Part shown: positions 1-59,801 of the stretch, piece by piece | How the letters are laid out: the number at the start of each line of letters is the position of its first letter | How positions within the stretch are numbered: position 1 is the stretch's first letter | Origin: Scenedesmus sp. PABB004 | Taxonomy: Eukaryota | Reading direction: 5' to 3' | Length of the DNA stretch: 64,000 bases | Assembly (NCBI GenBank): GCA_014905635.1 | Contig: JABVCE010000032.1 | Location: forward strand, 124,001-188,000 | The notes under the pieces: model-generated | What the model saw: only the letters and a program-made list of their open reading frames with translations | Database searches by the model: none | Told to the model about the DNA's origin: nothing | Translations under genes and position numbers: made by a program

Positions 1-761
1 GTGTGCGGCAACCACCTGCCGCGCCCGCTCACGACAATTGAGCGAAACATGGCCGTGGCTTTGCTTTCTGCATGCTTGATGCTGGAAATTTTGGGGTCAA
101 ATGCAATCGCCGCCGGCCGCACCGCAAAAAAGTCTGTGTTGATGTGGGCAGCGGTGCAGTTTATCTGGTCTGGGCAAGGCGTGTCATTGCAGTCGGCAAA
201 GATGCCGTCCACATCAGCATTGTGCATCGCTTCCAGCAGCCAAGTGTCATTGCGAATGATGACGTCAGGGTTGAGCCGGATCACCCAGTCAAACCCGTTA
301 AACCACCCTCTCGCGAGCGCCACATCCAAAGCCAGGATGGCACCTTCCTGGTAGCCTGGGTTGGTGTACTCGTGCAGCGTGACGGTGGTGTTGGGAAACG
401 TGCGCGCCAGCAGCTCTGCCCTTTCCGAGTAGCCGCAGCCCGTGGAGAAGACGGTCACCTGTGCAACGGAGCGCAGGAGCTTGGACCGCGCGATGGCCCC
501 CGGCCAGCAGCGCTTCAAGAACTGGACGTGGGAATCCGAGAATTGGGAGGTGACGTAGAGCGCAACGCGAGGGCTGCTGCTTTTTGTGAAGTTGTTGGTA
601 GTGTTGGTCGCGGGTGATCCGAGCTTCCATGCCGTGACTCTGAAAGACCAGGAAGGCTCTGCGGGAGCCCTGAGAACGTGCCACACCGCAGCCGTTGAGA
701 GCAAGGCGAATCCGAGCACGACAGCTAAGACCGTCGCCCTTGTGCTGGCGTCCGTGGACAT
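1..761 (-). CDS. Putative type II membrane glycosyltransferase-like protein, intronless, low GC, runs off the window (3' partial)
   Basis: Open frame from ATG 761 to the window edge, absent from the ORF track because it has no stop: MSTDASTRATVLAVVLGFALLSTAAVWHVL (TM) ... NPGYQEGAILALDVALARGWFNGFDWVIRLNPDVIIRND ... INTDFFAVRP; N-P-D at a GT-A DxD-like position. Confidence 0.6.
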   Translation of the reverse strand, partial: MSTDASTRATVLAVVLGFALLSTAAVWHVLRAPAEPSWSFRVTAWKLGSPATNTTNNFTKSSSPRVALYVTSQFSDSHVQFLKRCWPGAIARSKLLRSVAQVTVFSTGCGYSERAELLARTFPNTTVTLHEYTNPGYQEGAILALDVALARGWFNGFDWVIRLNPDVIIRNDTWLLEAMHNADVDGIFADCNDTPCPDQINCTAAHINTDFFAVRPAAIAFDPKISSIKHAESKATAMFRSIVVSGRGRWLPH

Positions 762-910
762 TTTTTCTTGGCGGGGCGATGTACTGCAAAATCCTTTTGT
801 AGTTGCGGAAATTCTTGTTGAATTATTCGGCGGTAAAGTGCCGGCCGACCTCGATAAAAACGTCAGGAGGGCAAAGTTGGCCCGGCAAACAGCCTGGTCG
901 CCAGCGCTCA

Positions 911-1922
911 GTCACCCGGTCACACAGTGCGATCCGACAGGCTGAAAAACATTCGGTCCTGTCGCAGGAGCGAGGCGCACGCTGGGCTGCTGCGGCAATC
1001 AATCGCAGGGCCAGCACAGAGCCAGGCAGAGTGCCCCAACGCCCGCGGCGCCGCACGCCACGGTCACAGCCACGGAGCCGTGACGCCGGCGATGGTCAGG
1101 GGGGCGGGCCGACGCGCGCCAGCACAATCGCGCGCCGCGCAGCGACTGCGCCGCGTGGCGGGCGGCCGTGCGGCGGGCGCACGGGCCCGGACAGCGGCGG
1201 CGCGCGTGCTGCGCGCCGCTGCACGTGGCGGCTGGCCCCCCCCAGCGCGCACCGGCGCTCTGCACCCTGGGGTAGGACGCCGGTCAGAACATCGCCAGCG
1301 CGAGCGCGGCCGCGAGCACGCTCAGCACGCCGGCGGAGGCGGCCGACGCGCCGCTCTGGGCGGGCGGGGCGGTGGTGGTGGGGATGGCGGTGGGCGCGCC
1401 GCCGTACGAGCCCGCGCTGCCCAGCGCCTCGGCCAGCAGCCTGCGCGCGGCGCGGGCGAGTCACGGGTGAGACGGGGGCGGGTGGGGCAGGCGCGCGCGC
1501 CGCGGGATTGGGCGCGGGCGTGTTCAGCGGCGGCGCGCCGCGGCGGCGGCCCCCAGCGGCGCGTGCCGCGCGCGCGCGCCTGGGCACGGGGTCGCTGACG
1601 GGCTGCAGCTCGTTCATCATCATGCTGTCCAGCGCCTCGTCCTGGCGCGCCGCCAGCGCGACCGCTGCGCTGCGGCTGCGGGGCGGTGACGCGGCGGGGA
1701 CGGGCACGGTCGCAGGCGCCGTCCCGCAGTCCGGGCGGGAGGAGCGCTCGCTGCGCCGCGCTCGCTGCCGGCCGGCCGGCGCCCGCCATCGCCGCGAGAG
1801 GCTGGCCGGCCGCGGCGCATTGCCGGGCGCCCGCGCCGGAGGTGGCGTCAGGCAGCCAGGCGCTCCGGGGGCGCCGCCCGATCGCCGCCCGCAGCGGCTG
1901 ACGGCGCGGGGCGGTAGGCGCA
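911..1922 (-). pseudogene. Direct duplicate of 3229-4250 (3' part and downstream region of the small secreted protein gene; lacks the signal-peptide start)
   Basis: Near-identical sequence starting GTCACCCGGTCACACAGTGCGATCCGACAGG at both 911 and 3229. Confidence 0.85.
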
Positions 1923-2085
1923 CCCCCGGGGGCGGCACCCGACTCAGCATTGCGTGAGCCGCCGCTGTTCAGCCGGCTGTAGCACGAGCAAGCCGGCCTC
2001 GGCGCTGCGGCAGCGCTGCAGGCCTGCTCGCTACGCAACGCTCTCGCGCGCCAACACAGAGACGGACGCAGCCGCGCGCCGCGCG

Positions 2086-3190
2086 ATGCTGCGCGCCGCG
2101 CTGCTCTACGGCGGCGCCAACCTCGTGAGCGTGGTGCTCATCGTCGTGGCCAACAAGGTCATCCTGGGGACGCTGGGCTTCCGCTTCCCCATCTGCCTGA
2201 CCTGGCTGCACAGCGCCGTGACGTGGGCGGGGCTGCAGGCGATGGCGCGGGGCGGCGTGTTTGAGCCGCAGCACGTGCCGCTGCAGCACTCGCTGCCCAT
2301 CGCGGCCGCGTACACCGGGTTCATCGCCTTCAGCAACATCAGGTGCGGGCGCGTGCGTGTGCGCAGGCAGCAGCGGCGGACAGCGGCGCCAGCGCCAGCG
2401 GCGGCGCGCCTCCGGAGGCGCCAGCCGGCAGCGCCAGCCAGTGGTGGTGGGACCGGGCACCAGCAGCGCCCGCCCGCTCGCAACCGCCCTGCCACACCGC
2501 CGCGCCACCGCCGCCCCCACCTCTGCCAGCATCCACATCAACACCGTCGGCTTCTTCCAGATCACCAAGATCATCTGCACGCCCGCTGTCGCCGCGGCGG
2601 AGTACGTGCTGTACGGCAAGCCCGTGGGCGCGCAAAAGGCGGGCGCGATCGCCGTGCTCGTGCTCGGCATCTGCGTCGCGACGGCGACCGACAGCGCGGT
2701 TGCCAGCAACCTGCCGGGCTGCCTCGTGGCGGCCGCGCAGGTCGTCAGCAGCGTCATGTACGCCGTGTGGGCGGGGTACAAGCAGAAGCAGCTCGGCGTG
2801 AGCGCCAACGCGCTGCTGCACCAGGTCTCGCCGCTCGCGGTGCTCCTGCTCGCGGCGCTGGTCGCGGCGCTGGAGCCGGTCGGCTGGCGCGCGCGCGACC
2901 CCGCGTCCATCCTCGGCTATGACTACACGCCCCGCGCGGTCGGCTGGATCGGCCTGAGCTCGGTGCTGGGGCTCGCGGTGACGCTGAGCACCTACCTCTT
3001 CATCGGCGCGACGTCGCCCACGACCTACAGCGTGGTGGGCAACCTCAAGACGCTCTGCATCCTCGCGGCGGGCATGCTGCTGTTCGGGGACGAGCTGTCG
3101 CTGAAAAAGGGCGCCGGGCTGGTGTGCGCGATGGCGGGCATCGTGTGGTACAGCCGCGCGGAGCTGCAGGCGCAGGCAACAAAGACGTGA
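2086..3190 (+). CDS. Nucleotide-sugar transporter, TPT/NST family (UXT/URGT-like); 2 exons, intron 2343-2529
   Basis: NLVSVVLIVVANKVIL, FRFPICLTWLH, SNIS|IHINTVGFFQITKI, IGATSPTTYSVVGNLKT motifs; GT-AG intron restores the frame. Confidence 0.9.
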
Positions 3191-3600
3191 CCCGCTGCGG
3201 CTAAAGGGCGGGGGAGCGAGCGAGCTGGGTCACCCGGTCACACAGTGCGATCCGACAGGCTGAAAAACATTCGGTCCTGTCGCAGGAGCGAGGCGCACGC
3301 TGGGCTGCTGCGGCAATCAATCGCAGGGCCAGCACAGAGCCAGGCAGAGTGCCCCAACGCCCGCGGCGCCGCACGCCACGGTCACAGCCACGGAGCCGTG
3401 ACGCCGGCGATGGTCAGGGGGGCGAGCCGACGCGCGCCAGCACAATCGCGCGCCGCGCAGCGACTGCGCCGCGTGGCGGGCGGCCGTGCGGCGGGCGCAC
3501 GGGCCCGGCCAGCGGCGGCGCGCGTGCTGCGCGCCGCTGCACGTGGCGGCTGGCCCCCCCAGCGCGCACCGGCGCTCTGCACCCTGGGGTAGGACGCCGG

Positions 3601-4400
3601 TCAGAACATCGCCAGCGCGAGCGCGGCCGCGAGCACGCTCAGCACGCCGGCGGAGGCGGCCGACGCGCCGCTCTGGGCGGGCGGGGCGGTGGTGGTGGGG
3701 ATGGCGGTGGGCGCGCCGCCGTACGAGCCCGCGCTGCCCAGCGCCTCGGCCAGCAGCCTGCGCGCGGCGCGGGCGAGTCACGGGTGAGACGGGGGCGGGT
3801 GGGGCAGGCGCGCGCGCCGCGGGATTGGGCGCAGGCGTGTTCAGCGGCGGCGCGCCGCGGCGGCGGCCCCCAGCGGCGCGTGCCGCGCGCGCGCGCCTGG
3901 GCACGGGGTCGCTGACGGGCTGCAGCTCGTTCATCATCATGCTGTCCAGCGCCTCGTCCTGGCGCGCCGCCAGCGCGACCGCTGCGGGGCGGCGGGGCGG
4001 TGACGCCGTCAGCGGCGCGCGGTGGGGACGGGCACGGTGGCAGGCGCCATCCCGCAGTCCGGGCGGGAGGAGCGCTCGCTGCGCCGCGCTCGCTGCCGGC
4101 CGGCCGGCGCCCGCCATCGCCGCGAGAGGCTGGCCGGCCGCGGCGCATTGCCGGGCGCCCGCGCCGGAGGTGGCGTCAGGCAGCCAGGCGCTCCGGGGGC
4201 GCCGCCCGATCGCCGCCCGCAGCGGCTGACGGCGCGGGGCGGCAGGCGCAGCGCCTCGTGCTCGGCAGTTTTCCCCACGCGCCCCGGGCCCCGCTGCCAC
4301 CGCTGCCAGCGGCTATGGCCGGCGTGATCCGGCGGGGCAGCGGCGCCGCGGCCGCACCCGCGCAGCAGGCCAGCAGGGTGAGCACAACAATCAGCTTCAT
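3601..4400 (-). CDS. Small secreted, possibly GPI-anchored protein (multi-exon; internal structure partly uncertain)
   Basis: Signal peptide MKLIVVLTLLACCAGAAA; exons AVALAARQDEALDSMMMNELQPVSDPVPR|LLAEALGSAGSYGGAPTAIPTTTAPPAQSGASAASAGVLSVLAAALALAMF*; the diverged copy near 54.8-55.2 kb shows conservative substitutions. Confidence 0.6.
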
Positions 4401-10300: not shown

Positions 10301-10682
10301 CGAGCGCGAGCTGGCGCTGCGTGACGAGGTCCTGGCCGCGCTCAAGGCCGCCGTGCGCGAGGCAGAGGCAGCGGCGGCGCGCGCCGCCGCGGCGGGCCGG
10401 CCTGACTCGTTTGAGTACCTCAAGTCGTGCGTGCTGCAGCTGTACGTGACGGACGAGGCAGGCGCGCTGCTGCCGGTCTTTGCGCAGCTCCTTGCCTTCT
10501 CCCCCGACGAGCTCGCGCGCGCACGCAACGGCCTCGAGCGGCTGCGCGGCGCTGCTGCCGGCGACCCGCCGCTGCCGGGCGCGGCGGCGGTGGTCGACTC
10601 GGCGAGCGCCGCGCTCGCGGCGTGGACGGCCTGGGCGCTGGGCGGCGGCGGCGGCGGCGGCGGCGGCGGCAACAAGGCCTGA
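7386..10682 (+). CDS. Coiled-coil golgin with C-terminal GRIP domain, multi-exon
   Basis: Long heptad-rich exons; GRIP motif SFEYLKSCVLQLYVTDEAGALLPVFAQLLAFSPDELARA; one apparent 1-nt indel in a G run near 7968. Confidence 0.8.
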
Positions 10683-10714
10683 GCGTGCGGCGTCGTGAGT
10701 GCGGCAGGCGGGCT

Positions 10715-11610
10715 CCAGGACCTCGTCGCGCAGCGCCAGCTCGCGCTCGAGCTCGCGCACCTCTGCCTCCTGCTCGCGCGCCGCGTGCCGCGCGGCCGGC
10801 CCGACCAGCGAGGCTGCGGCATTGGCGCCGCTGCCGTCCAGCAGCGCCACAGATGCTCCGGCGCCCGCGTCGGCGAGCCCCGGGTCGCCGTCGGCAAAGA
10901 TGGACTCGAGCAGGTCCGGCTCCGAGGGCGCAAACACGGCGAGCTGCCGCTCGCTGCCGCCCCGCGCCGCTGCGCTGGGGCTGTGCGCGGACGCCGCGCC
11001 GCCGTTGCCGCCGCCGCTGCCGCCAGTGCCAAGGAACGCGCCCGCCGTGCCCACCCACGCGCCGCCGGCCGCAGGCGCGCCTGCGCCGCCGCCCGGCGCG
11101 GGCGGGCAGCGCCGGCGCAGGCCGTCGAGCTCCTCGTGCAGCGCCGCGTTCTCGCGCACCGCGCTGAGCAGCTCGCCGTCCTTGGCCTCCAGCACCGCCT
11201 CGCTCGTGGCACGGAAGGCCGTGTGTTCGTTCTGCACATGCGCGTGAGGTAGAGACTGTGAACAGCAGGCATGCCAGCTCACCGGTGCGGGCCACCCCGA
11301 GGCGGTTGCTGAGCTGCCGAGCAGGCGCCGGGGCCGCGCTCGCGCCGGGCGGCGGCCGCACCTGCAGCGCTCGCAGCTGCGCCAGCAGCGCGGCGCGCTC
11401 CTGTGCCAGCTCCTCCACCACCGCGGCCGCTCCGCCAGCAGGCGTCGTGCCGCTGGCGCGCTCCGCCGGCGGCGGCCGCTCGGCGGGCCTTGGCCGCCGT
11501 CAGCTGCTCCTCCGACGCCGCCAGCGCCGCGCGCGCCTCCCCCAGGCTGGCGTGCGCCTCCTGCGCCAGCTGCTCGTGGCGGCCTGCAGCTGCGCCTCCA
11601 GCGCACGTGG
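10715..11610 (-). pseudogene. Inverted partial copy of golgin region about 9400-10336, intron retained
   Basis: Reverse complement encodes NEHTAFRATSEAVLEAKDGELLSAVRENAAL...ELALRDEVL, with small deletions. Confidence 0.9.
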
Positions 11611-22200: not shown

Positions 22201-22441
22201 GGAGCGGGCGGCCGCCTACGAGATGGCCAGCATTTGGCCGGCGACCAGCCCCGACAAGCAAGCGGACCACCTGGCGGCCGAGCTGGTCGCGGAGCTGCAG
22301 CTGCAGCAGAGCGCGCCCGCAGCCGCTGCGAGCGCAGGGGGCGGCGCGGCGCTTGGGGCGCCCGACGTCGGCGCGGCAGAGGGGGGAAACGAGTTCGGGG
22401 CGGAGGAGGAGATGACCGCCGACCTGTGGGGGCTGGTCTGA
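19245..22441 (+). CDS. GH32 beta-fructofuranosidase/invertase-like, multi-exon
   Basis: [15 protein letters not shown], mini-exon [55 protein letters not shown]; apparent 1-nt indel in a C run near 20618. Confidence 0.9.
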
Positions 22442-34226: not shown

Positions 34227-35678
34227 CACAGGCGATGACGGTGGCGGGAACGCCGGAAGCGGCGGCGGCGCCGGCGGTGGAGGTGGCGGCGCGCCTGCGG
34301 CGGCGCTGGGCGCTGGCGACCGCCTCGCGCGGCTGCGCGCGGCGGCGTCCAGGCCCATCCGCGTGGTGCTGATGACGGGCACGTTTTTCACCATCGACCC
34401 CAAGAGTACCGCCAACTGCTCCCTCGACGGCGTGCCCCTCGACTGCTCCGTCTCCAGCGACCAGTCCAAGGCGCGGACGCGCGCCGGCGGCGGTCTCCCT
34501 CACCCACGCCCGCGGCTGCGCCCGCGTCGGCGCACCGCGCCCGCGGCGAGCGGCCCGGCGGGGCTGCGGCCCGGCCCCACGCGCCGACGCGCGCACATGC
34601 CACAGGAGTCGGTCGAGGCGGCAGACTGCCTCTACTACCACGTCCCCTCCTTCAGCGGCGCGCCGCGCGCCAAGGCCCACCCCGGCCAGCTGCGCCTCGC
34701 GATGAGCCTGGAGAGCGCGACGTACTACTCCCAGCTCGACAACCCGGCCTTCATGTGCGCTTTTGACGCCGAGATGAGCTACCGCCAGTGCGCGCAGGTC
34801 GTCAACTGGTACAGCCTGGAGACCTTCCATGAGCTCTTCGAGGTGCGCGCGCCTGCACGCGCGCAGCTCTCGTAACCGCCGCCCGCGTCGCGCCATCAGC
34901 TGGCCGCCGCCGCCCCTCTCTCGCGCGCAGACGCCGCTAGTGCCGTTTGAGGACAAGGTGCACGCGATCGCCTACATCAACAGCAACTGCGGCGCGCACT
35001 CGGGGCGCGCCGCCATCATGCGCGAGCTCATGGCACTCAACGGCTCCGTGCCCGTGCACAGTCTCGGCGGCTGCGACCGCAACACGCCCTGGCCGCCCGG
35101 CAACCCCAGCAAGCGCGCGGTGCAGGCGCGCTACAAGTTTTGCGTGACCATGGAGAACAGCCTGGCCGCCGACTACGTGACCGAGAAGCTCTGGGACGGC
35201 CTGGCCGCCGGCTGCGTGCCCGTTTACATGGGCAGCCCGCGCGTGCGGGGGATGGTCCCCGACGCCGCGGGCGTCATCATGTACGACCCCGCCGGCGGCG
35301 GCGACGCGGCGAGCCCCCAGGAGCTGGCCGACCTGCTGCAGCGCATCGGCGGCGACAGGGCGGCGTACGAGCGGATGCTGGCGTGGAAGCACCGCAAGGT
35401 GCGCCGCGCTGGGCCGCAGCGGCCTGCCCTGCGCGCACAGCGTGTGAGCCCGCCACCCGCCACCGCGCTGCCATCTGCAGCCGGAGGAGCAGCCCAACGC
35501 CCTCTTCCGCTACCTCTGGTCGGTGCAGCACGTCTCGGGCGAGTGCTTCCTCTGCCGCTTCCTGGCAGCGCACCGCCTCGACCCGCGGCCGCGCTACACG
35601 ACCTGCCTCTTCAACGAGACCTGGATGCGCGAGGCCAAGCAGCAGCCCGTGGACGCGTCGTTCCGCTGCCCGGCCTGA
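32759..35678 (+). CDS. Fusion gene: GDP-fucose-transporter-like (GFT1/GONST3-4) domain + TM + coiled coil + GT10 fucosyltransferase; exons 32759-33837, 33948-34470, 34606-34842, 34931-35398, 35481-35678
   Basis: N-terminal FALASAALLVVNK...ALQL...LRHASVDAVVAVRCCTP...LGQVAK; C-terminal GT10 motif YKFCVTMENSLAADYVTEKLWDGLAAGCVPVYMG and IAYINSNC; the splices keep a single frame. Confidence 0.8.
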
Positions 35679-40697: not shown

Positions 40698-40743
<46 letters not shown>

Positions 40744-43734: not shown

Positions 43735-43739
43735 AGAGC

Positions 43740-49198: not shown

Positions 49199-49451
49199 TC
49201 GGGGGCACACCTGGGGGGCGGTTGGGTGAGGCAATGGAGGGCGCGCGCTCGCGGGGGGGGGGGGGGGGGGGGGGCAAGCATGCAGGCATGCGGTGTAATT
49301 GCTGGTGCGTGACGGCTGCAGGGGCCACAGCGGCCCAGAGGCGATCCTCCCAGCTTATCTCCGCGAAAAGCCACGTCTGGGCACGCTGCTGCAGGCGCCC
49401 TCCGGCGCCCACGCGGCGCGCATCGCGGCATTCCTGGCGAGCAGGCACCCT

Positions 49452-49793
49452 TCAGGGAGCGGCAGGGCGGCGAGGGCGACGCGCGGCAGCCTGCCGCGCG
49501 TCGCCCTCGCCGCCGCGCATACGATGCGCTCGGTGCTGTTTGGGGGGGGAAAATCGCACATCAACGCTGAGGCCGCTGTGGGCGAGCAGCTCTGGCACCC
49601 ACTCCACCTCCCACAAGCCTGAAACAAGAGTTTCGGAGTTTGGTAGTACCCACACTACTGGCAGGTGAGCCTCCTTGGTAGGTGGTCGCCAGGTTGAATG
49701 ACTGTTCGATCCATTGAACAAAAGGCTGCCAACAATTAAAATGACTGATGAAGATATCGTGGCGAGGCTCAACATAACAGCTCGGGGGCGCAT
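49452..49793 (-). pseudogene. Low-GC 5' fragment of a type II membrane (glycosyltransferase-like) gene, truncated near 49520
   Basis: MRPRAVMLSLATISSSVILIVGSLLF (TM)...LPVVWVLPNSETLVSGLWEVEWVPELL; AT-rich upstream; GC rises abruptly below about 49520. Confidence 0.45.
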
Positions 49794-50064
49794 TGACGAT
49801 GGGACAATTTCTCCACAAACACGCGAAGTAGCATGGCGGATATAGCAGTGGCGGTACAAAAGCCCACCTGACAACACGTGTTCTCAGCAAAAAAAACTGT
49901 GTTGTTGTTTCTGCAAAAATTTGGCACTCGCCGCGGCGGCCATTTTGGCACTCGCCGCCGGCAGCGCGCGCACGACACCTTGTGCTTGGGCTCGGCGTCA
50001 GCCTGCGCGAGCGTCGGCGGGCAGCGCGTACGAGTCCGCAGTGACCCCTGTCGCCGTCGCCTCG

Positions 50065-50429
50065 CAGCGTGCGGAGCAGTTCATCGACCGCTTCGTGCGC
50101 GCGCTGCCGGCGGCGATCAGGGCGCCGGTCGTGCACATCGTCAAGCCGTCCTGTCGGCGGCGCGCAGCATCGTTGACCGCAGCCCACGACCGCGTGCTGC
50201 TCGCAGCACGCCCTCACAGCACCGCTGCCGCTGCCGCCGCGCGCAGTGCGAGGTCGACACCGAGAGCGTGGGCCACGTGCTGTGCAAAAAGGCAGAGGAG
50301 CTGGACGCGGCGGCGATCGTCATGGCCAGCCACAACAAGGACCGTGTTGCCGAGTTCTTCCTCGGCAGCGTGAGCCAGTACTGCACACACCACAGCAAGC
50401 GGCCCGTGGTCATCGCGCCCGCCAAGTGA
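50065..50429 (+). pseudogene. 3' fragment of a universal stress protein (USP-A) gene
   Basis: VVHIVK|CEVDTESVGHVLCKKAEELDAAAIVMASHNKDRVAEFFLGSVSQYCTHHSKRPVVI; no 5' exons; donor after VK reads CC. Confidence 0.8.
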
Positions 50430-50668
50430 AGCTGGCGGCGCTGTGAAGCTGGCGGCGCTGTGGCTGGGGCACTGGCGGGCGCCACGCACGCGTGCCTTGC
50501 TGGCGGGGCCCAGCGATGCTCTGCGCAAGCGCCGGCGTGGCTTGCTGCTGCTGGCTGCCGCGGCGCTCACGCAGGCCTGGTGCTGGCGACGAGCGTTGCA
50601 CGCTGCACCGTCCGGTGGGAGCACGAGGTTACACACACCTGCTGCGCATGGGCAGCCCTGACCGCCCG

Positions 50669-51738
50669 CTAGTCGTCCAGCAGGCCCAGCTCGTGCAGCC
50701 TGTCGAGCGCCATGTAGGCGGTGGTGATGGAGGGCAGCAGCATCTCGCCCGACACCATCAGCCGCCGAAACTCGTCCAGCGGCAGCCGCAGCACCTGCGG
50801 CAAGCGAGCGGGCGGGCGGCGGCGGCGGTGAGCGGGCGGCGCGGCACCCGGCTGCAGCGCCCGCCCGGCAGCATCTGCACGCGCCTCCATGCTCGCCTCC
50901 TCCGCGTCCCGGCTGCCCGGCTGGGGGTCGGTGCCCGGGCGGACCACCAGGAACGGCACGAAGCGGTTCATGCACCACTTGACCTCGGGCAGCCCCGGGT
51001 GCTCCGGCGCCAGCAGGCGGTGCCACTGACCGCCCGCCAGCCAGGCCTGCGCGCGCGATTTGACGCGGCACCTGGCGGCGCGGCACACGGCCAGCCTCGA
51101 AAAAGCGCCACAGAGCCGCTGCCCGCACCCGCCCGGCGCGACCGCCGCCGCGCACCTCCTCGCTCAGCTCGCGCGCGGCGCACTCGGCGACGTCCGCGTG
51201 GCGCCCCGGGTCCAGCCCGCCCGTGGGCAGGCAGTAGGCCAGCGCGTGCGGGCCCTGTGCGTACTCGCGGACGAGCGTGACCTGGCGGCCGCGCAGGCAG
51301 GCGTGCGGCGTGAGCCCCAGGCGGTGCCCCCCTTGTCGCCTGCGCGCCCCGCGCAGCCCGGCCACCGCCGCACTTCGCCGCCCCTGCGGCCGTCCTTGTA
51401 GGGGTGGAAGGGAAAGGTGACCGCGAAGCAGAAGTTGGCGCGCGGGTGGCCCATGACGTCAAGTCGAGCACGCGGCACTGTTTGCCGGGGTGGCACGGCG
51501 GTCGCGCGGGCTGCGGTCAGCGCCGGCCAGGTGTGTGCGTGCCCGTCCAGCCCCCCTCGCTGGCCGCACCTCGGCGGGGCTGCCGGGCGCAGAAGCGCAC
51601 GCGGCGGTCGTACGGTCAGGTACGGTCAGGTCAGGTCAGGTCAGGTACGGTCAGGTAGCGGCTGTGCAGCGCCTCCGACACGAGCTCGTACTGCTGCATC
51701 GGCGCGACCTGCAGCGCCGGCTGCGGGTGCAGCTGGCG
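50669..51738 (-). pseudogene. Nudix hydrolase gene disrupted at its 5' end
   Basis: VTLVREYAQG, LPTGGLDPGRHADVAECAARELSEE (Nudix box), LPEVKWCMNRF; first exon has an ACCTG/ACCGT expansion with a stop (51609-51657) and abuts a LINE. Confidence 0.8.
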
Positions 51739-53410
51739 AAAAAAGACAAAGATAGTTACACCACAGGCTCGCGCCCATTGGTCCCGCGCCCCTTAAGGAC
51801 GGTGTCCCGCATCTTCCAGATGTCCATCACATAATCTGCCACAGAGTGAACAGCAAGCTGATCCTGCAGCAGGTCACCAAGCAGATAATGCCGAGCCTGC
51901 TCCAGTGCTGCACACCGACCCGCCGCGCCGGTAACGGCAGCCCGAGGGGCTGCCGCACCAGCAGCGACGCTACTGACGCTGACCGCCGCGCTGACATCAG
52001 CAGCCCGAGGGGCCGCCGTAACAGCCGCGACGCCGCTGTCGCTGATGCTGACCGCCGCGCCTGCGTCAGCAGCCCGAGGGGCCGCCGCGCTAGCCACGAC
52101 GCCGGGGTCGCTGACGCTGCCGCTGCCGCCGCCGCCAGCTCCAGCCTCCAGCTCCTGGCTGCCGCTGGCCGCCAGCTCAACACCAGCCGCACGCAGGTGC
52201 GCAGCCAGCGCGCCAGCATGCGCGCCCCCGCCGCTGGCACCGAGGTCCGCAAGCAGCGCAGCGAGGCGCGCAGGGCGGCCGGGCGCGCCGCACTCAAAGA
52301 GAAAGTGCGCGGCCGACTCGGGCGCGCGCGCCGCGCAGCAGGGGCAGCGCTCCCGCTCCGCCTGCTGCGCGACCAACTCCCCCCGGCGCGCGTGGCTATG
52401 GGCAGCGCGCAGCGGGAGGCACTCCATGCGCAGGCGCATGAGCAGCTCCGCCGGCCGGCCGCGCCGCAGAGCCAGCCCAGGTAATCCCGGGCGCACGGCA
52501 CGCCGGCGCGGCGCGTGAAGGAGCGAGTAGAGAAGACGCCGCTGCCAAAGGCCTCCCGGTAGCGCCGCGCCACCGAGCCGCGGCCGGCGGCGGCCTCCCA
52601 GGCGCCATCGATGTGGTCGCCAGCAAGGTCGCAAAGGTGAGCAGCAAACTCGTTGCGGCTCATGCCTGCAGGAGGCCGCCCACGCCCTTCCACCACGGCG
52701 TGGCGGGCCAGGCGTCGGCAACGCGGCGCAGCAGGCGGTCGGCTGGCAGGGCACGCAGGCGGTGCTAGCGCAGCATGAGGGTGTCGCACACGACATGCAG
52801 CGGGGTGATGCCCGGCTCCTGCTGCAGGCACGCGTGCGACACGTTGGCGGGCACCCGGTCATGCGCCGCGCATGATGCGCGCCTCCAGCCCCGCCTGTCA
52901 CGAGTCGAGCTCCGCGCGGCGTTCGACCGTGGGGCGGGCCCAGACCTGGGCCGCGTGCGTCAACACAGGCTGCACCACGCCCGTGAGCGTGAGCAGGCGC
53001 AGGCGCAGCGGCAGGCGCCGCTCGCGCAGCACCGCCGACTGAGCCCAGAACGCCTTGTCCGCAGCAGCCTTGCGGCGCTGCAGGTGGGCGTCCCAGCTGC
53101 GGGCGCTGCGGTCGGCCGTCAGCCACGCGCCCAGGTACCTGTACCCAGTGACGCGCGGCACCTGCTCCGCGCCCCACGACCACTGGTAGGCCGCCGCGTG
53201 GCGCCAAGGAGCTGCTGCATCTCCGCCGGGCCGGCCGCAAGGCTGGCGCAGTCGTCCGCGAAGAGGAGCGCGACCAGCTTGTCGTCGGCGGCGCCTGGCT
53301 CGGGCGCGGGTGGCGCCGCGCCGGCGGGCGGCGCGGGCGGCGCGGCGGGCGCGGGCGCGGCGGGCAGCGGCACGCCCATCGGGTGCCGGGTGCTGCTGCG
53401 TGGGCTGCGC
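51739..53410 (-). mobile_element. 5'-truncated, degenerate non-LTR retrotransposon (LINE; L1/RTEX-like ORF2 C-terminal half)
   Basis: RT motif LLFADD, YRYLG, C-terminal zinc knuckle CPCC...ESAAHFLFEC; internal stop at 52898 and frameshifts; ORF stop at 51756 overlaps TGTAA, followed by a short T-rich tail. Confidence 0.85.
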
Positions 53411-53544
53411 AGGCGGCCCGGTCGGTGGCTGAACGCTCCCTGCGGACGCATGCCGGGGCGCACGCAGCGGCAGAGGCGGGCAGCGAACCTACAAAACCAA
53501 GCTGGGGAGCGTGGAGGGCGGTCTCATCTTGCCGCTCAGACCTT

Positions 53545-54336
53545 TTACACGCACAGAAAGCTCCCATTGCCGACGTTCCGTCGCCCCAGCTCGCCACTCA
53601 AGTGGCAAACGCCGGACGGTTCAATGTACCCCGCCCAACCTGCATATGATTCTGGAAAATGGAATACAGCGCGCCCTGTTGACGCCTGTGCTAAGTGCGG
53701 CCGGCCGCAGCGCACGACCATGAGGTCCATGTCGTGCAAACGCTGAGCTTTGTTGGCCCGCCAATGCCAAACAGGCACAGAACGGTTGAAGGGTGTTCTG
53801 AATGCACATGATTCCCATGGCGCAAATATCTGGTGCTGCTCGCCAGCGCAGCCCCATTTTTGATAAATGTAGTTAGCATTGACCAAGAAGCGCTGCCCTG
53901 CCAGTGAGTTGATGTTTGCGGCAGCGGCGTCGTTTGAATCGTCTGGCAGACCCAGGCCACTGCGGTACAGAGAGTCACTTCTTGCTCCGTGGACCATGGT
54001 TACGGCGTGCAGAGTTGTAACATTGAGTCGCGGCTCCATGCGCTCGTTGCGCAGGGTGAAGTCTCTGTCCTCAAAGTACGCTGGGTATAGATTTTCATCA
54101 AACAGGCCAAAGCGCCCGATGGCACCGCGCGTCATTGCAAACGCGTTGAACTGCCCGTCCGCATCGCGCATGTTGGACCTGCGACGGCAGGGTGAGTTTC
54201 AGTACGTTGCGTGCCATTGACGCATGCGTCGTGCCACTCACCATGACATGAGCCCCACGTCCACGCGCGACGCCGGGTCCCAAAAGTGACGCCCCAGCTG
54301 CCTCAGTGATCCCGGCTCCCAGGCCGTGTCGCGCGC
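53545..54336 (-). CDS. Glycosyltransferase-like gene (GT2-like), 5'-truncated, one intron (about 54178-54241), low GC
   Basis: DTAWEPGSLRQLGRHFW...VGLMSW|SNMRDADGQFNAFAMTRGAIGRFGLFDENLYPAYFEDRDF...YIYQKWG...PFN; upstream replaced by copied host DNA at 54337. Confidence 0.7.
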
Positions 54337-55376
54337 CGCAGGCAACAAAGACGTGACCCGCTGCGGGCTCTCGGGTGAAGGGCGGGGGAGCGTCGACGGC
54401 GTGCTCGCGCGAGCGAGTCGAGCGAGTCGAGTCACCCGGTCACACAGTGCGATTCGACAGACATTATTCAGGCCTGTCGCGCAGTGGCGAGGCGCACGCT
54501 GGGCTGCTGCGGCAATCAATCGCAGGGCCAGCACAGAGCCAGGCAGAGTGCCCCCGACGCCCGGCCCGACCTCGGCCGCCCCACGCCTCGGTCACAGCCA
54601 CGGAGCCGTGACGCCGGCCAATGGTCAGGGGGGCGGGCCGACACACGCCAGCACAACCGCGCGCCGCGCAGCGACTGCGCCGCACGGCGGGCGGCCGAGC
54701 TGCGGGCGCACTGGCCGGGCCAGCGGCGGCGCACGTGCTGCGCGCCGCTGTGCGCGGCGGCTGGCCGCCCAGCGCGCACCCGCGCTCGGTACCCCCTGGA
54801 GGTAGGCGCCGCTCAGAACATCCCGAGCGCGAGCGCGGCCGCTAGCAGGCTCAGCACGCCGGCGGAGGCGGCCGACGCGCCGCTCTGGGCGGGCGGGGCG
54901 GTGGTGGTGGGTATGGCGGTGGGCGCGCCGCCGTACGCGCCCGCGCTGCCGAGCGCCTCGGCCAGCAGCCTGTGGGCGGCGCGGGCGAGGCACGGGTGAG
55001 GCACGGGTGCGTGGTGGGGCACGTGCGCGCGCCACGGGATCGGGCGCGGGTGGCTGCAGTGGCGCCGCGCCGCGGTGGCGGCCCAGCGGCGCGTGTCGCG
55101 TGCGCACGCCTGGGCACGGGGTCGCTGACGGGCTGCAGCTCATTCATCATCATGCCGTCCAGCACCTCGTCCTGGCGCGCCGCCAGCGCGACCGCTGCGG
55201 GGCGGCGGTTTGGGGCGGTGACGCCGTCAGCGGTGTGGATGCGCGTGGCGGGGAGCATCCTGCGCTGCGCTGCGCGAGTGTGGAGTTGCTGCGCCGCCAG
55301 CTGGCTGTCGGCCGGCGCCCGCCATCGCGCGAGGAGCCTGGCCCACCGCCGGCCCGCGGCGCATTGCCGGGCGCCC
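54337..55376 (-). pseudogene. Third, more diverged copy of about 3171-4160 (last codons of the NST gene plus 3' exons of the secreted protein)
   Basis: CGCAGGCAACAAAGACGTGACCCGCTGCGG shared with 3171; encodes QDEVLDGMMMNELQPVSDPVPR and ...LAAALALGMF*. Confidence 0.85.
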
Positions 55377-55434
55377 GGGCGGGCGGCGGCGCCCGCCCGC
55401 AGACGCCGCCGCCAGTCCCCCCCCCCCCCCCCCC

Positions 55435-55909
55435 TTACTCCTCGATGATGCGGCTGAGCGCGGTGATGAGCGTCTTGAGGTTGCGCTGCACGCCCGTGTC
55501 GCGGCTGAACACGCTCACGTCGGCGCTGATGCTCTCCACGTGCTCCAGCGTCTTGCACAGCGTCAGCACCGCGGCGCGCAGCGCGCGCACGTTGTCGTCG
55601 GTCAGCACCGCGCTCTGCAGCGCCTGGATGTCGGCCGCGGCGCCCGCCGCCGCCTCGGTGAGGTGGTCCAGGTTGGCGACCAGCCCGCCCGCGCGCAGCT
55701 CCTGGTTGTGTTTAGGGGGGGGGGGTGCAAGACAGGCAAGCGCGCGGCGTGCTGCAGGCGGCAGCGGCGGCGGCGAGCGCCCAGCGCGTGCCTAGCGCCT
55801 CGCTTGCCCCACCCCCCTCCCCTCAACCAGACCTGCAGCAGGGGCGTGACCTCCTTGGTGAGCTGCGCCGCCTCCTCCAGCAGCGGCGCGGCCTCCTTCA
55901 GCGGCCGCC
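55435..55909 (-). pseudogene. TGD2: TGD2 C-terminal fragment (two exons, intron 55702-55832)
   Basis: LTKEVTPLLQ|ELRAGGLVANLDHLT...VLTDDNVRALRAAVLTLCKTLEHVESISADVSVFSRDTGVQRNLKTLITALSRIIEE*. Confidence 0.8.
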
Positions 55910-56042
55910 TTTTTTAGGCCTGCACGGCCTCAAAGAACTCGTCAACGCCCTCCTGCAGGGCGTTGGGTGCCGCCTACACGACGACAGGGTCGTCGTGTGG
56001 GCGGCACATTAGACGTGCAGCCTGCCACCGCCCCAGCCTCGT

Positions 56043-56384
56043 TCACCCAGGCGCGAGGGCAGGCGGAGCGCGCCCGCTGCCAATCAGCCTGCACACATTC
56101 GGGCGCTCTGCGTCGTCGGAGTAGTAGCTGCGGTAGGTGATGCCTGGGTCAAAGCTGTGATTGTTCACAGAAGTGAGTGGTGGTGATGGTTGAAAATTCG
56201 CGCCTCTCGTCAACTCAGGGTCGACATCTGGAACTCCAGGTGGCACGACGACTGAAACTTTTGACGGATTTTGAAATCTGTGAGAGAAAAGAACGATTAT
56301 AGTGACAAACGACCAGCACAGGGCATACTGTTTGTGCCGTGACCTGGATTTTTTGGCCGGCGAGCCCGGCTGTTTATTCGACAT
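56043..56384 (-). pseudogene. Low-GC short or truncated type II membrane protein ORF
   Basis: MSNKQPGSPAKKSRSRHKQYALCWSFVTIIVLF (basic tail + TM), Pro-rich stem; AT-rich upstream 56450-56500; no recognisable catalytic domain. Confidence 0.4.
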
Positions 56385-56579
56385 CCGGTTGCAAATGAGC
56401 GGAACGCTGTGCAACTGGGCAGTGTGCTGAGACTGTGCAGGTGGCCAGTTTTACATCGATTTTTACAACTTTCTCCTATTTTTGATATGTACTAAAACCA
56501 GCAAACCCCACGCATTGGGCGCTCTGCATGGGAATCCTTAGCTTTGCCCGACGACGGCTGGCGCGGCGCGGCGCTCACG

Positions 56580-56976
56580 TGAAGGTGGCTCAGCGGCATC
56601 CACGATGAGGTCGCTCTGGTTGGCATGGACCACGCTGTTCCGTGGATGACGCTCGACACATCGATCACCTGCGGGCGTGGGTGTGCAGGCGCCGAGGCCG
56701 TGTGCCGGGCGCGGCTGCCATCGGCGGCACTGGGGCACGCAGTGCAACCACCGCAGCCCCAGGCGCAGCTCGACGAGCGTCGGCCTTGTCGAGACTTCAC
56801 GCTCGGCACGCTGTCCACCGCGACGCCGCGGATGCAGGAACAGAAAAGCGGCGGGGGCTGGTGAACAGCCTGCGAGCTGGTGGCAGGCGCTGGCAGTTCG
56901 CGCGCTCGCCCGCCGACGTCCCCAGCCGCACCGGCGTGCCACGGTGATGCCGCAGGCAAGCGGGAACTCAATCGTC
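56580..56976 (-). pseudogene. TGD2: Degenerate TGD2 MCE/MlaD-domain exons
   Basis: IEFPLACGITV.., IRGVAVDSVPSVKS and PRNSVVHANQSDLI pieces, with frameshifts and intron remnants. Confidence 0.65.
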
Positions 56977-57215
56977 GTACTCGTGGATGAGCGTGACCTG
57001 GCGGTCGCGCAGGCAGGTGCGCAGCGTGAGCCGCAGGCCGTGCCCCTCGTTGCCTGCGCGCCCCGCGCAGCCCGGCCACCGCCCCACCTTGCAGCCCCTG
57101 CGGCCTTCCTTGTGGGGGGGGGGGTGTGGAGGGCAAGGTGGCCGCAAAGCGAAAGCTGGCGCGCGGCTGGCCCACGACGTCCGTCAAAGTCAAAGTCGAG
57201 CACGCGGCCCTGCGA
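56977..57215 (-). pseudogene. Diverged copy of Nudix exons (about 51262-51478)
   Basis: GRVLDFD..VVGQPRASFRFAAT and intron plus VTLIHEY match the Nudix locus. Confidence 0.75.
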
Positions 57216-57364
57216 GCGAGGGAAAGGCGGGCTGCCTTTGCTACCGCCACAGCTGTGCGCGCAGACGCCCCTCGGGTTCATGTTAGGGTTCTTTTTTAAA
57301 TGCCATAGGCATAGGGTGCCAATTGCGCAGCGGAGCCTGGGGAGTCCACATCGCGCCAGCAAGA

Positions 57365-57434
57365 ACGCCCGCTCCTTTTGTTTAACCACGCCCGCTCCTT
57401 TTGTTTAACCACGCCCGCTCCTTTTGTTTAACCA
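57365..57434. repeat. Perfect 23-bp tandem repeat x3 (ACGCCCGCTCCTTTTGTTTAACC) just downstream of the 57466 GT gene; mirrored at about 62775-62844
   Basis: Direct reading. Confidence 0.9.
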
Positions 57435-57465
57435 TCCCCAACCCGCGTCACTGAGCCCGCTCTTG

Positions 57466-58260
57466 TCAGCATGGCCACACTCCGCGAGCTGTTGAGTGAT
57501 TCCATGTCCCAAGCTTCGTCCAGCTCTGCCCAGCTAACTTTAACTTGACATAGTTGTGGAATGACAGGACTTTTGGAACGTAAACATGCTGCGCTTTGTG
57601 GTTGTGGACAATTTGTGAGATGAAAGGCCCGTCTGCGCCGTAGTTATTGATCTCCCAAGTCGTATTGCCGATTAGGTCACGGTCGATCAGAAACTGGGCG
57701 GTGTCAATGCAATTAGGTCGTGGATTGCTGCCCTTCAAAAGCAGGGGCTCACCGCCACGTAACTGGTCAAACGTGTACACATGACCTGCAGTGGCTTTAG
57801 GAAGCCACTCCCAAAAGCTTGGGTGCATGGCGTTGTCATCATCAAGAAAGTACACCATGCCGCCTTTGATCAACTGCAGCGCACGGTTCCGCTGCGGGTT
57901 TCCTGAGATTCCAGGCGACGTGTGAAACACTTCCAATACTTTGGGGTTGTCGGGGAATGCGGGGACAACGTCTTGCAGCGCCTTTGCATCATAGACGATA
58001 ATCCATTGGTGCACACAATCAAACTGTATGCTAGACGCCGTTTCAGCCATAAACTGTTTGGTTGTCCTGCTCCACGGCGTGACAATTGTAAGCGAAACGT
58101 TCACGATGCATCGTGGGCGGCTGACGTCAGCGAAATCTATTTCTTTGTTCTGGAGTCGAACGCTGCACATAGCCGTCCAAGCAACGTATGTGAATGCAAA
58201 CAACAAAACTGCCGAGATGATTGCGCATGTGCACAGGGCGATGTTGCGCCACGGTTTCAT
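57466..58260 (-). CDS. Intronless low-GC GT-A glycosyltransferase (GT2/GT43-like) with N-terminal TM
   Basis: TM IALCTCAIISAVLLFAFTYVAW; LTIVTP, WIIVYD, SGNPQRNRAL, MVYFLDDDN, IDTAQF, YGADGPFI. Confidence 0.85.
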   Translation of the reverse strand: MKPWRNIALCTCAIISAVLLFAFTYVAWTAMCSVRLQNKEIDFADVSRPRCIVNVSLTIVTPWSRTTKQFMAETASSIQFDCVHQWIIVYDAKALQDVVPAFPDNPKVLEVFHTSPGISGNPQRNRALQLIKGGMVYFLDDDNAMHPSFWEWLPKATAGHVYTFDQLRGGEPLLLKGSNPRPNCIDTAQFLIDRDLIGNTTWEINNYGADGPFISQIVHNHKAQHVYVPKVLSFHNYVKLKLAGQSWTKLGTWNHSTARGVWPC

Positions 58261-58427
58261 TTTTTAGTTCAAATGAACCAACGAATCTTGGCCACGCCAA
58301 GATTCGTGCAGCTGTTAAATGAATTTTTTTTCCCATAACACGGCTCAATCATAACATTTCAAAACATTCAAAATACATTCATAACTAACAGCCCGCTGTG
58401 GAACTCACCACAGGTTCGCAACGAGAG

Positions 58428-59801
58428 ATGGTCAAAATAAGACGGGACATGCTGCTGCCGCTAGTAGGCTTGTTGTTCATTGTTCTGTGCACGACCGCGC
58501 TGCTCCAACAGAGTTTATGTCACCGGCTTAAAACAATGCACGACCCGAGGGCAACCATTCAACCTGCACACGCTCAGTTGAGTACTTTGTTCAAGCCGGC
58601 CTTGCGGGCGAAGCTATTGCACCTCCAAAACGCAAGAAATGGTTTCGCAGCGGAGCTAGCTCAGGTGCTCCTAGCAGCCCCAACCGCCATCAGGTCTGCT
58701 CGGCGACCCTACCAATGCACATCGGCCAAGGTGTATCCGATTTCGTTCTCCCTCCCTCGGCAATACTTTGCATCTGTCGTCGCGCCAAAAGCTCAAAACT
58801 TTTCCACGGTTATCCCTGGCGTCCGAGAAACGTATGTGTTCAAGCCACGCAATGGCGACAGCCCTCACCAAGTGTTGGAAGCAGAGAAAAAGTACCGTGA
58901 CGACATGGCAAGGAGTTTGTTCGCCATCACATTCAAAAAGGCAGGTTGGGACTGCATGCGCCATGTTGAAATCCTCGCCGCGGGCGCGCTGCCATTGTTC
59001 ACTGACATTGAGGGCTTGCCGGCAGGCACCATGGCTGCGCACCCTGTCGAGGTTTACAAGAAACTGCGACGCTGGCCAGGCATAGAACTGCAGGGATTCC
59101 CAGGCACGCGGCCCTTGCCAGGGAAAAGCTTGCCCACATTCCCCCTGACGCTCAGCAAAGATGCGGTGCAGTGGGCCCTGACTGCGGCTGTTGAGCCATT
59201 TGTTTATCAAGCCGCAGTTGAGTCGCTTCTCGCCATCAGCACAGCCACACTTACCACGAACGCAATGGCACAGTACCTTGTTGAGACAGTGGGAATCGAC
59301 CCCCAGCACAGCAGGGTCCTTTACATTGCGTTTCCACTTGAAGCGGATTACCAGGGAGATACAGTGCTGATCGGCTTGCAGCAAATAATGACTGTGCCTG
59401 TTGTGGATTTCCCTGCCATCAAGCACATTTATCAAACAACAGCAACCTTCAAGGAAAGAGTGTTTTCAGAAAAGAAAAAGGCACTTTACGGCGCAGGTTT
59501 TGGGTATGCATATCAGCTGGCAGAGCCGTTTGGCCTCAACAGGACGGATGTTGCAGGCCGCCTTGCAGCCGGGGAGTTTGACTATGTTGTGTTTGGGTAC
59601 GCTCACCGCGCATATTGGAAAGAAGTGTGGAGGTCGGCTGTGTGTGGTTTGTTTGCCACAGAACGCACTGTTTTCATTCACGGAGACGATGTTCCGCCCA
59701 GCGACGAGCAACTCAAAGTGATGAGTCAGTGTGCAGATTGGATTTTTGCCAGAGAGATGCCAATAGGCTGCGAGATGACGCAGAGGAGCCGGAGCGCCTG
59801 A
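58428..59801 (+). CDS. Intronless low-GC glycosyltransferase-like protein (GT-B/exostosin-like motif) with N-terminal TM
   Basis: TM LLPLVGLLFIVLCTTALL; VYPISFSLP, VIPG..ETYVF, SLFAITFKKAGWDCMRHVEILAAGALPLF, VFIHGDD; start could be GTG 58398, ATG 58428 or ATG 58449. Confidence 0.75.
   Translation: MVKIRRDMLLPLVGLLFIVLCTTALLQQSLCHRLKTMHDPRATIQPAHAQLSTLFKPALRAKLLHLQNARNGFAAELAQVLLAAPTAIRSARRPYQCTSAKVYPISFSLPRQYFASVVAPKAQNFSTVIPGVRETYVFKPRNGDSPHQVLEAEKKYRDDMARSLFAITFKKAGWDCMRHVEILAAGALPLFTDIEGLPAGTMAAHPVEVYKKLRRWPGIELQGFPGTRPLPGKSLPTFPLTLSKDAVQWALTAAVEPFVYQAAVESLLAISTATLTTNAMAQYLVETVGIDPQHSRVLYIAFPLEADYQGDTVLIGLQQIMTVPVVDFPAIKHIYQTTATFKERVFSEKKKALYGAGFGYAYQLAEPFGLNRTDVAGRLAAGEFDYVVFGYAHRAYWKEVWRSAVCGLFATERTVFIHGDDVPPSDEQLKVMSQCADWIFAREMPIGCEMTQRSRSA

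Follow-up and report, generated by a model that had tools for sequence, protein, structure and literature searches.

Introduction

The best described compartments of the kind considered here are the small outlier chromosomes (SOC) of the Mamiellales, such as chromosome 19 of Ostreococcus tauri, whose features are taken here from the available text of PMC5082852, PMC5498103 and PMC3491373. The last of these, in the same portion, draws an analogy to the glycan islands of Prochlorococcus and states that no outlier chromosome was seen in Chlamydomonas, Volvox or Chlorella. The SOC holds mainly species-specific genes with few conserved housekeeping ones, differs in size and content from strain to strain, and is linked to virus resistance. 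Outside the Mamiellales, the available text on the prasinophyte Pseudoscourfieldia marina (PMC13213038) describes LTR-rich outlier chromosomes that are complete, with two telomeres. In the Scenedesmaceae, endogenous giant viral elements have been described (PMC13315243), and the main text of that report, in its available portion, contains neither 'glycosyltransferase' nor 'methyltransferase'. A survey of mostly open-access main texts found in print no outlier chromosome in the Chlorophyceae and no low-GC glycosyltransferase region in the Sphaeropleales.

The window analysed here, a stretch of 64,000 nucleotides from Scenedesmus sp. PABB004, lies on a 331-kb contig, C27, with a telomere at one end. 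A preliminary description of this DNA had drawn a parallel to the Ostreococcus outlier chromosome, which GC, duplication and glycan gene content of C27 make stronger than that description could see. C27 is similar in size to the SOC (260–415 kb in O. tauri), has a lower GC than the sampled rest of its genome, contains internal duplications and inversions, and carries glycosyltransferases, FkbM methyltransferases, an epimerase and TPT-family transporters, with glycosyltransferase and transporter paralogues in new contexts as well as putatively foreign genes. Unlike in the SOC, however, low GC does not extend along the chromosome and is limited to the cassettes and the glycan genes, many housekeeping genes, including single-copy RPL4, have normal codon use, filler fragments come from C27 itself, and the host, whose order is presumed from named best matches and the telomere motif, seems to be a core chlorophyte. 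With the P. marina chromosomes, as far as the available text describes them, C27 shares lower GC, richness in repeats, and carbohydrate and methyltransferase genes, but it shows a single telomere and little transposon content, along with debris of host genes. With the Scenedesmaceae elements, in the available account, it shares clustered, non-host-like, intron-poor genes on a green algal chromosome, but no hallmark genes were found in the C27 segments scanned. We consider it fairly probable (roughly 0.6) that the low-GC ORFs are part of a hypervariable compartment for surface glycans on C27, shaped by foreign entry, reshuffling and selection. In our best reading, which is one by analogy, this compartment may work like the Ostreococcus SOC, yet embedded among single-copy housekeeping genes.

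A contig of outlying composition

Without its satellite, C27 has a GC of 0.738, compared with a median of 0.79 in other sampled contigs; C27 itself was binned and the rest of the genome was represented by 49 samples from contigs of at least 60 kb, so that a second such region might escape. In 7-kb bins, 29 of 43 on C27 fall below 0.76 GC, whereas only 2/49 samples from large contigs elsewhere do so (p = 2e-13), and 300-bp windows below 62% GC (380 of 6,126 on C27 vs 17 of 6,826 in the 49 samples) are in an excess far beyond chance. Low GC is patchy along the contig, i.e. 6-kb bins span 0.63–0.80. Other small low-GC contigs, considered as similar regions, were rejected: C54 is rDNA, C52, C57 and C64 are telomeric pieces, and C62 is the left end of C27 again, a repeat opposite the telomere that was assembled a second time. 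Internal duplication makes up 31–50% of 110-kb slices of C27 vs 1.5% in the single control, C28.

Pfam identified RPL4 (its sole match in the genome), a tRNA synthetase, SecA, porin, Brix and other housekeeping genes on C27. Codon use follows a gradient, with GC3 at 0.58–0.72 in the cassettes, a median of 0.86 in 11 host-like glycan genes and 0.96 in housekeeping genes (18 on C27 and 14 on the control contig; difference p = 0.98); glycan-related genes of C27 as a whole range from 0.58 to 0.98. Housekeeping genes interleaved with rearrangements, together with lower GC, are also what a mating-type or other recombination-suppressed locus of the big-outlier type, passively gaining duplications and foreign genes, would display; yet housekeeping GC3 is unchanged, nearly all of the foreign genes relate to glycans, and RWP-RK is absent from the scanned C27 segments while the same scan found one on C28, which makes such a locus very improbable.

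The Pfam scan covered 238 of 363 predicted C27 segments and, as control, 113 segments of C28. On C27 it matched GT61 (twice), GT31, GT47, STELLO, GT92, GT10, RXYLT1_C, DUF5672, TPT (twice), epimerase and Methyltransf_24, whereas a GT or TPT match occurred in 0/113 control segments. Overall, some twelve genes of C27 look like glycosyltransferases, and sugar transporters and methyltransferases accompany them. This enrichment is not exclusive: across four families, FkbM, GT61 and Methyltransf_24 among them, 15 of 20 matches lie off C27, three of the four families having been picked after they were sighted on C27. Two host-like genes of this kind lie in the window:

2086..3190, plus strand: host-like nucleotide-sugar transporter (Pfam TPT)
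34603..35663, plus strand: host-like GT10 fucosyltransferase exons (GC3 0.96)

The former was duplicated together with ORF1 (see below; second copy at C27:198048-198996, 93%), and the latter follow a transporter-like ORF without a Pfam match.

Anatomy of the low-GC ORFs

1..761, minus strand: ORF1, intact, 281-aa type II membrane protein, GT-A-fold predicted glycosyltransferase; ends at C27:123916, 85 bases outside the window
49452..49793, minus strand: ORF2, duplicate truncated at its 3' end, keeping roughly 88 initial codons; full 350-aa RXYLT1/GT47-like gene at about C27:202497-203549
53545..54336, minus strand: ORF3, 5'-truncated GT2-like gene; 63-bp GT-AG intron at 54179-54241
56043..56384, minus strand: ORF4, low-GC 113-aa fragment with a weak hydrophobic segment (1.16); identical copy from 63825 (plus strand)
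57466..58260, minus strand: ORF5, intact, 264-aa type II membrane protein, GT2-like predicted glycosyltransferase with DDD motif (family profile)
58428..59801, plus strand: ORF6, intact, 457-aa type II membrane protein, probably GT-B/exostosin-type (motif comparison)
62157..62743, plus strand: 5'-truncated inverted sequence copy of ORF5, without the anchor

The preliminary description had placed six foreign-looking, low-GC ORFs at the coordinates of ORF1 to ORF6, where all are indeed present, and had overlooked the copies of ORF5 at 62157-62743 and of ORF4 from 63825. Their GC (0.51–0.61) and GC3 (0.58–0.72 vs 0.96 in housekeeping genes) are low as described, and the 150 bp upstream have only 37–52% GC; 'A/T-ending codons', however, was an overstatement, G/C-ending codons still being the majority. 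The N-terminal membrane anchor ascribed to five intronless ORFs holds for four (KD19 maximum 2.1–2.6) but not for 56043-56384 (1.16). As genes, ORF1, ORF5 and ORF6 are intact, while ORF2 and ORF3 are cut-down cassettes and ORF4 is a fragment. Pfam run directly on the six ORFs gave nothing above cut-off; glycosyltransferase identity could be supported for most, namely by the fold of ORF1, the GT2 likeness of ORF5 and an RXYLT1_C match of full-length ORF2 (35.7 bits vs a curated cut-off of 27), with a weak galactosyltransferase-type match for ORF3 and a shared motif only for ORF6.

The predicted structure of ORF1 (pLDDT 87.8) superimposes on GT-A enzymes with a Z of 12.7 and an rmsd of 3.4–3.8 over 182–192 residues, and N164 and D166, invariant in its family, form an acidic motif after the fourth strand, as in GT-A. 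By this model ORF1 is a GT-A-fold protein, with predicted sugar transfer. It is under purifying selection, its paralogue at C27:196419-197261 being 90% identical (dS 0.27, dN/dS 0.21). ORF5 itself scores below the Pfam cut-off, but its family profile matches GT2 structures (E = 6.5e-6) with the DDD invariant. ORF6, which points away from ORF5 beyond an AT-rich spacer of 167 bp, reached a best Z of 5.6 in fold comparison; Foldseek returned no match at E = 0.001 or better, and none of 18 family members has a GT Pfam match. A motif shared with ORF2 over 41 columns (E = 1e-4, probability 56.5%) suggests that ORF6 is probably a GT-B/exostosin-type glycosyltransferase. ORF2 retains only the 5' quarter of a 350-aa gene that is present in full 29 kb away, and in ORF3 the 5' end is missing, cut off at a duplication junction (54337). 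ORF4 has no longer copy in the genome; its family has no Pfam match above cut-off, and its Atlas relatives are short hypothetical proteins only.

Duplicated host fragments and junctions

911..1922, minus strand: host repeat of about 1 kb, probably a gene for a small secreted or GPI-type protein; further copies at 3229-4250, 54430-55391 and C27:188814-189773
50064..51738, no strand: fragment of host DNA, duplicated, from a Usp gene and its neighbour; matches C27:238291-239914 at 87%
51742..53540, minus strand: decayed retrotransposon-like fragment (translation motifs), by its motifs presumably a non-LTR retrotransposon remnant
54337..58052, no strand: 3.7-kb block; inverted duplicate from 62157-64000 onward (C27:186157-189866), 99.5%
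55419..55963, minus strand: duplicated host fragment joined to the 3' side of ORF4; 91% to C27:235767-236317
59839..62157, minus strand: fragment of host DNA, duplicated, from the 3' part of GH32 and its neighbour; matches window 21156-23493 at 85%

All intact cassette blocks of C27 (6/6; null 7.6%) have duplicated host fragments at no more than 300 bp on both sides, e.g. the GH32-derived fragment begins 38 bp past the stop codon of ORF6. At each cassette the left and right fragments are broken copies of different donor genes, both of them C27 genes. Insertion with target duplication was discarded, since the flanks come from different genes. The 1-kb repeat lies upstream of four low-GC cassettes; it was rejected as a site-specific cassette slot because breakpoints differ between copies.

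With two duplications 99.5–99.8% identical, contaminant DNA or misassembly might be suspected, but C27 contains no Ns, carries a telomere and single-copy RPL4, its host–cassette junctions recur in diverged copies (98.4%), and the ORF1 paralogues, under selection as they are, lie 10% apart; an artefact is therefore extremely improbable.

Origin of the cassettes

The ORF5 and ORF6 families had been described as frequent in giant-virus and bacterial data, and 426/480 and 512/534 pattern-matched stretches, respectively, were confirmed in viral contigs. The ORF5 clade (6 sequences, UFBoot 100) is nested within a larger one (99), in which 30 sequences are viral and 8 bacterial. Seven of these eight are from Pelagibacteraceae genomes, a likeness to marine bacterial surface-glycan islands that we presume the label SAR11 island to fit; such islands, however, are operons, while C27 has eukaryotic membrane-anchored single-gene cassettes. 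The abundance of the ORF5 and ORF6 families in viral contigs, along with giant-virus insertions reported for 18 Scenedesmaceae genomes (PMC13315243, available text), would suit endogenous giant virus remnants reduced to glycosylation genes. Yet viral identity reaches at most 43% for ORF5, 32% for ORF6 and 43% for ORF1 (only 4 loci), an anchor occurs in 0/61 viral relatives of ORF5 and 1/54 of ORF6, and the cassettes are single genes amid host debris rather than a gene-dense block. A search for NCLDV core genes in the flanks had been proposed; no capsid, DNA polymerase B or packaging ATPase gene appeared in the 238 of 363 C27 segments scanned by Pfam. Viral remnants are thus quite improbable. 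For ORF3, full-length ORF2 and the DUF5672 gene, single-protein scans, which detect close relatives only, found no close viral relatives.

The best named matches are chlorophyte, i.e. Raphidocelis (45–46%) and Monoraphidium (49%): ORF6 shares a clade with a Raphidocelis protein (support 0.995) and ORF1 with one from Monoraphidium (0.996). Recent direct transfer from a virus, or from a bacterium, as the preliminary description might suggest, is unsupported, because the closest relatives are anchored algal proteins. That description had named vertically inherited chlorophyte orthologues as best hits that would speak against it; of this, chlorophyte best hits alone were found. Old algal glycan genes, inherited vertically and depleted of GC during long non-recombining or hemizygous residence, with the compartment still hypervariable, would indeed account for the supported clades, for the anchor in most relatives and for the ORF3 intron, whose position is apparently common to homologues (several matches start at the same point) and which, with best named relatives in other Sphaeropleales, fits long residence. 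Duplicated host fragments, however, show no significant AT-ward drift (422 vs 386 changes in 13 hand-polarised pairs, p = 0.22), adjoining housekeeping genes stay at GC3 0.96, cassette junctions are sharp and named relatives are only 45–49% identical, so that purely vertical descent seems unlikely.

In the compartment reading that we prefer, the contig represents one chromosome arm, capped by a telomere, in a green alga of very high GC. Cassettes, each with about 130–275 bp of AT-rich upstream DNA and a gene, mostly free of introns, whose membrane-anchored product is a glycosyl- or methyltransferase, would have come in on separate occasions, out of a pool of lower-GC genes common to algae and, at greater depth, to giant viruses and marine bacteria. 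Repeated intrachromosomal breakage and rejoining may then have copied, moved and truncated them, leaving broken neighbouring host genes as filler, with selection retaining intact cassettes. Their products may act in the Golgi together with co-located nucleotide-sugar transporters and so vary a glycan of the cell wall or surface; viruses or other parasites would most likely supply the pressure.

With a counterpart in a core chlorophyte, the origin and rearrangement of the Ostreococcus outlier chromosome become testable, as does its possible restriction to a single order; on C27, filler is traceable to source genes and cassette ages are readable from GC3. The ORF1 and ORF6 families are candidate glycosyltransferases for algal surface-glycan variation. 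Removal of contigs with abnormal GC in genome projects, as in the available methods of PMC13315243, could discard such regions. More tentatively, virus-defence 'glycan-switch' chromosomes might recur across algae, built from Golgi-anchored single-gene cassettes circulating from alga to alga and from chromosome-restricted shattering and rejoining with host-gene filler, C27 being this process caught in an essential arm with cassettes of every age. A GC contrast of at least 9 points marks only 4 of 84 loci of ORF1-family relatives, which speaks against the preferred compartment reading. C27 cassette families cluster in other algal contigs too, with 6/84 ORF1-family loci elsewhere also bearing relatives of other C27 cassette families.

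The low-GC cassettes

Mean GC of the window is about 77%, dropping sharply at six ORFs that a preliminary description had singled out as far poorer in GC than host genes. All six are present, with GC of 0.51–0.61 and third-codon-position GC (GC3) of 0.58–0.72, compared with a housekeeping GC3 median of 0.96 both on C27, the contig carrying the window (18 genes), and on a control contig (14 genes). Three of the six are intact:

1-761: ORF1, intact (281 aa), ending just beyond the window edge
49452-49793: ORF2, first quarter of a 350-aa gene, whole at C27:202497-203549
53545-54336: ORF3, with a 63-bp intron and its 5' end cut off; homologues extend ~100 residues farther upstream
56043-56384: ORF4, in two identical copies; a genome search found no longer one
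57466-58260: ORF5, intact (264 aa)
58428-59801: ORF6, intact (457 aa)

An N-terminal transmembrane anchor had been ascribed to the five intronless ORFs; a clear hydrophobic helix is seen in four, the exception being ORF4 (KD19 maximum 1.16). Besides full-length ORF2, three further intact cassettes of this build lie outside the window, i.e. an ORF1 paralogue, a Methyltransf_24 gene and a DUF5672 gene.

The ORF1 model (pLDDT 87.8) matches GT-A enzymes (Z 12.7, rmsd 3.4–3.8 over 182–192 residues), the ORF5 family profile, in which DDD is invariant, matches GT2 structures (E 6.5e-6), and full-length ORF2 scores above the RXYLT1_C cut-off. Galactosyltransferase-type matches to ORF3 are weak. ORF6, with a best structural Z of 5.6 and a single motif in common with ORF2, is only probably a glycosyltransferase.

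Patchwork architecture of C27

Every intact cassette consists of 130–275 bp of AT-rich upstream DNA, as had been described, the coding sequence and 6–285 bp downstream, followed by high-GC duplicated host DNA. Such duplicated DNA lies at most 300 bp away on both sides of all six intact blocks, versus 7.6% of random unduplicated intervals, and among 21 unique gaps of 0.6–3.2 kb at C27 110–240 kb, the seven with GC ≤0.59 are cassettes. The two flanks of a cassette derive from different genes, which argues against insertion into one target; we therefore infer that cassettes were placed by patchwork rejoining. ORF1 was duplicated together with its adjacent transporter, and the copies' dS of 0.27 and dN/dS of 0.21 argue for function and against contamination.

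C27 (330,915 bp), on which the window occupies 124001-188000 (G000:C27), ends in telomeric repeats directly preceded by a 24-kb array of a ~281-bp satellite (G000:C27:306680-330548; L025-L028). GC falls below 0.76 in 29 of its 43 bins versus 2 of 49 samples from contigs of at least 60 kb (p 2e-13); these 49 belong to a set of one sample from each of 72 other contigs (median GC 0.79). The sole large-contig sample as low as C27 (L289, G000:C8:150001-157000; 0.72) has no visible low-GC ORF, and the small contigs of low GC consist of rDNA or telomeric sequence, or assemble the C27 left end a second time. Duplicated DNA makes up 31–50% of four 110-kb C27 slices versus 1.5% of one slice of the control contig C28; since pair identities span 79–99.8%, these duplications are of many ages. 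For two stretches tested, no long high-identity copies were found off C27.

Individual rearrangements include an 8.5-kb tandem duplication (99.8%; G000:C27:28284-45276; L010, L009) with an almost intron-free multicopper oxidase gene and an FG-GAP ORF, bacterial-looking in amino-acid content yet with GC3 of 0.86–0.89, and an inverted SecA pair (90%; G000:C27:204768-209282 and 220498-225075). In the window, a gene's 3' part is tandemly triplicated up to the truncated-ORF2 junction (46860-49226), a fold-back inverted duplication (91%; 9444-11583) affects a GRIP-domain gene at its 3' end, and one end of a probable retrotransposon fragment (51742-51975) shares 96% identity over 234 bp with the rDNA-repeat contig C54. 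Some host fragments we take to be GPI-type or LINE.

Gene content and the outlier-chromosome parallel

Coding segments were predicted with a purpose-built codon model, and Pfam was searched with 238 of the 363 C27 segments and 113 of the 174 from C28, segments below 50 aa or of low score being excluded. C27 yielded GT61 (twice), GT31, GT47, STELLO, GT92, GT10, RXYLT1_C, DUF5672, two TPT transporters, an epimerase and Methyltransf_24. These matches lie at 53–232 kb; the 113 C28 segments contained no GT or TPT. With 0.83% of genome bases, C27 carries 2 of 6 GT61, 1 of 8 FkbM, 1 of 5 Methyltransf_24 and the single DUF5672 match genome-wide, a count biased by the choice of these four families; GT61, FkbM and Methyltransf_24 thus occur elsewhere too. 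Ordinary genes are also present, among them the genome's sole RPL4 match, and neither viral hallmark families nor RWP-RK were found in the 238 segments.

Eleven host-like glycan genes (GC3 0.74–0.98, median 0.86) bridge cassettes and host genes in GC3. G000:C27:53000-70000 (L008-L006), with GT61, an FAD-oxidoreductase-like gene, an epimerase fused to a TIM-barrel domain, a TPT transporter, FkbM-like genes and GT31, is an older, largely ameliorated glycan cluster. Several large cysteine-rich, surface-protein-like repeat proteins are encoded at G000:C27:700-13200, 71500-74900, 83800-88500 and 260000-264200, the left-end one being assembled also as contig C62. The window's fucosyltransferase has a 70% paralogue at G000:C77:537697-538773.

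The proposed parallel to the Ostreococcus small outlier chromosome holds for gene content and turnover, but not for low GC over the whole length or scarcity of housekeeping genes; because these two defining features fail, C27 is a variant of this chromosome type rather than a member. From what is established for type II Golgi enzymes, and given the anchor–stem–catalytic layout, co-located transporters, selection and rearrangement seen at C27, cassette products would be predicted to transfer sugars to glycoconjugates of the wall or surface and to methylate these sugars. Copying, truncation and replacement of cassettes could then alter the coat, and parasites may select on such changes, as proposed for O. 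tauri chromosome 19 (PMC5082852; PMC5498103). PMC3491373 reports that no outlier chromosome had turned up in Chlamydomonas, Volvox or Chlorella, and PMC13213038 extends their range to another prasinophyte; a passage of PMC6731263 adds nothing further, and viral insertions are reported in Scenedesmaceae in a main text that does not mention glycosyltransferases (PMC13315243). The main texts of open-access papers searched yielded no report of such a chromosome in core chlorophytes.

Origin of the cassettes and related loci

A horizontal origin of viral or bacterial type had been suggested. Named chlorophyte matches exist for ORF6 (two Raphidocelis proteins, 45–46%, the best named ones, with close locus numbers and each on a contig of 111,154 bp) and ORF1 (Monoraphidium, 49%, after anchored proteins at 61% and 54%), but not for ORF5 (best matches 70% down to 48%). 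In FastTree analyses ORF6 groups with Raphidocelis (0.995) and ORF1 falls into an eight-member clade including Monoraphidium (0.996). Viral relatives of ORF5 and ORF6 are numerous but distant (43% and 32%), giant-virus MAG names accounting for 15 and 24, respectively, of 80 contigs listed. In a reduced ORF5 tree (the 6 core sequences with 30 of the 61 viral and 24 bacterial ones, further database proteins being left out), the core clade (support 100; sister relationship weaker, 79) is nested within a larger group (99) that comprises the full set of 30 viral sequences and 8 of the bacterial ones, seven of these from Pelagibacteraceae. This nesting makes a remote ancestry of ORF5 in a viral or bacterial pool plausible, although the closest relatives look algal. 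Slow GC loss in place without recent entry is the main rival explanation; AT drift in host debris is not significant (422 vs 386, hand-polarised), which makes this rival less likely.

ORF1 relatives occur at four viral loci. Viral-collection contigs of up to 330 kb carry them (L201-L203), with an N-terminal anchor scored in two viral entries, which points to a possible vector. Relatives of further C27 cassette families are encoded next to the ORF1 relative at six of 84 loci, although three of the six may be one organism, and at four of the 84 the relative lies at least 9 GC points below its own flanks. At seven loci picked by hand, glycan or methyltransferase-type families (DUF268 and GH125 counted) were matched by 14 of the 28 ORFs nearby, and L205, L214, L236, L251 and L266 carry tightly packed series of ORFs that lack introns and have hydrophobic N-termini. 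The hosts of these loci are probably algae. At L208:22-1047, an ORF1 relative at 48% GC adjoins a SUI1 gene in DNA of 66–76% GC, the same host/low-GC mosaic in another organism.
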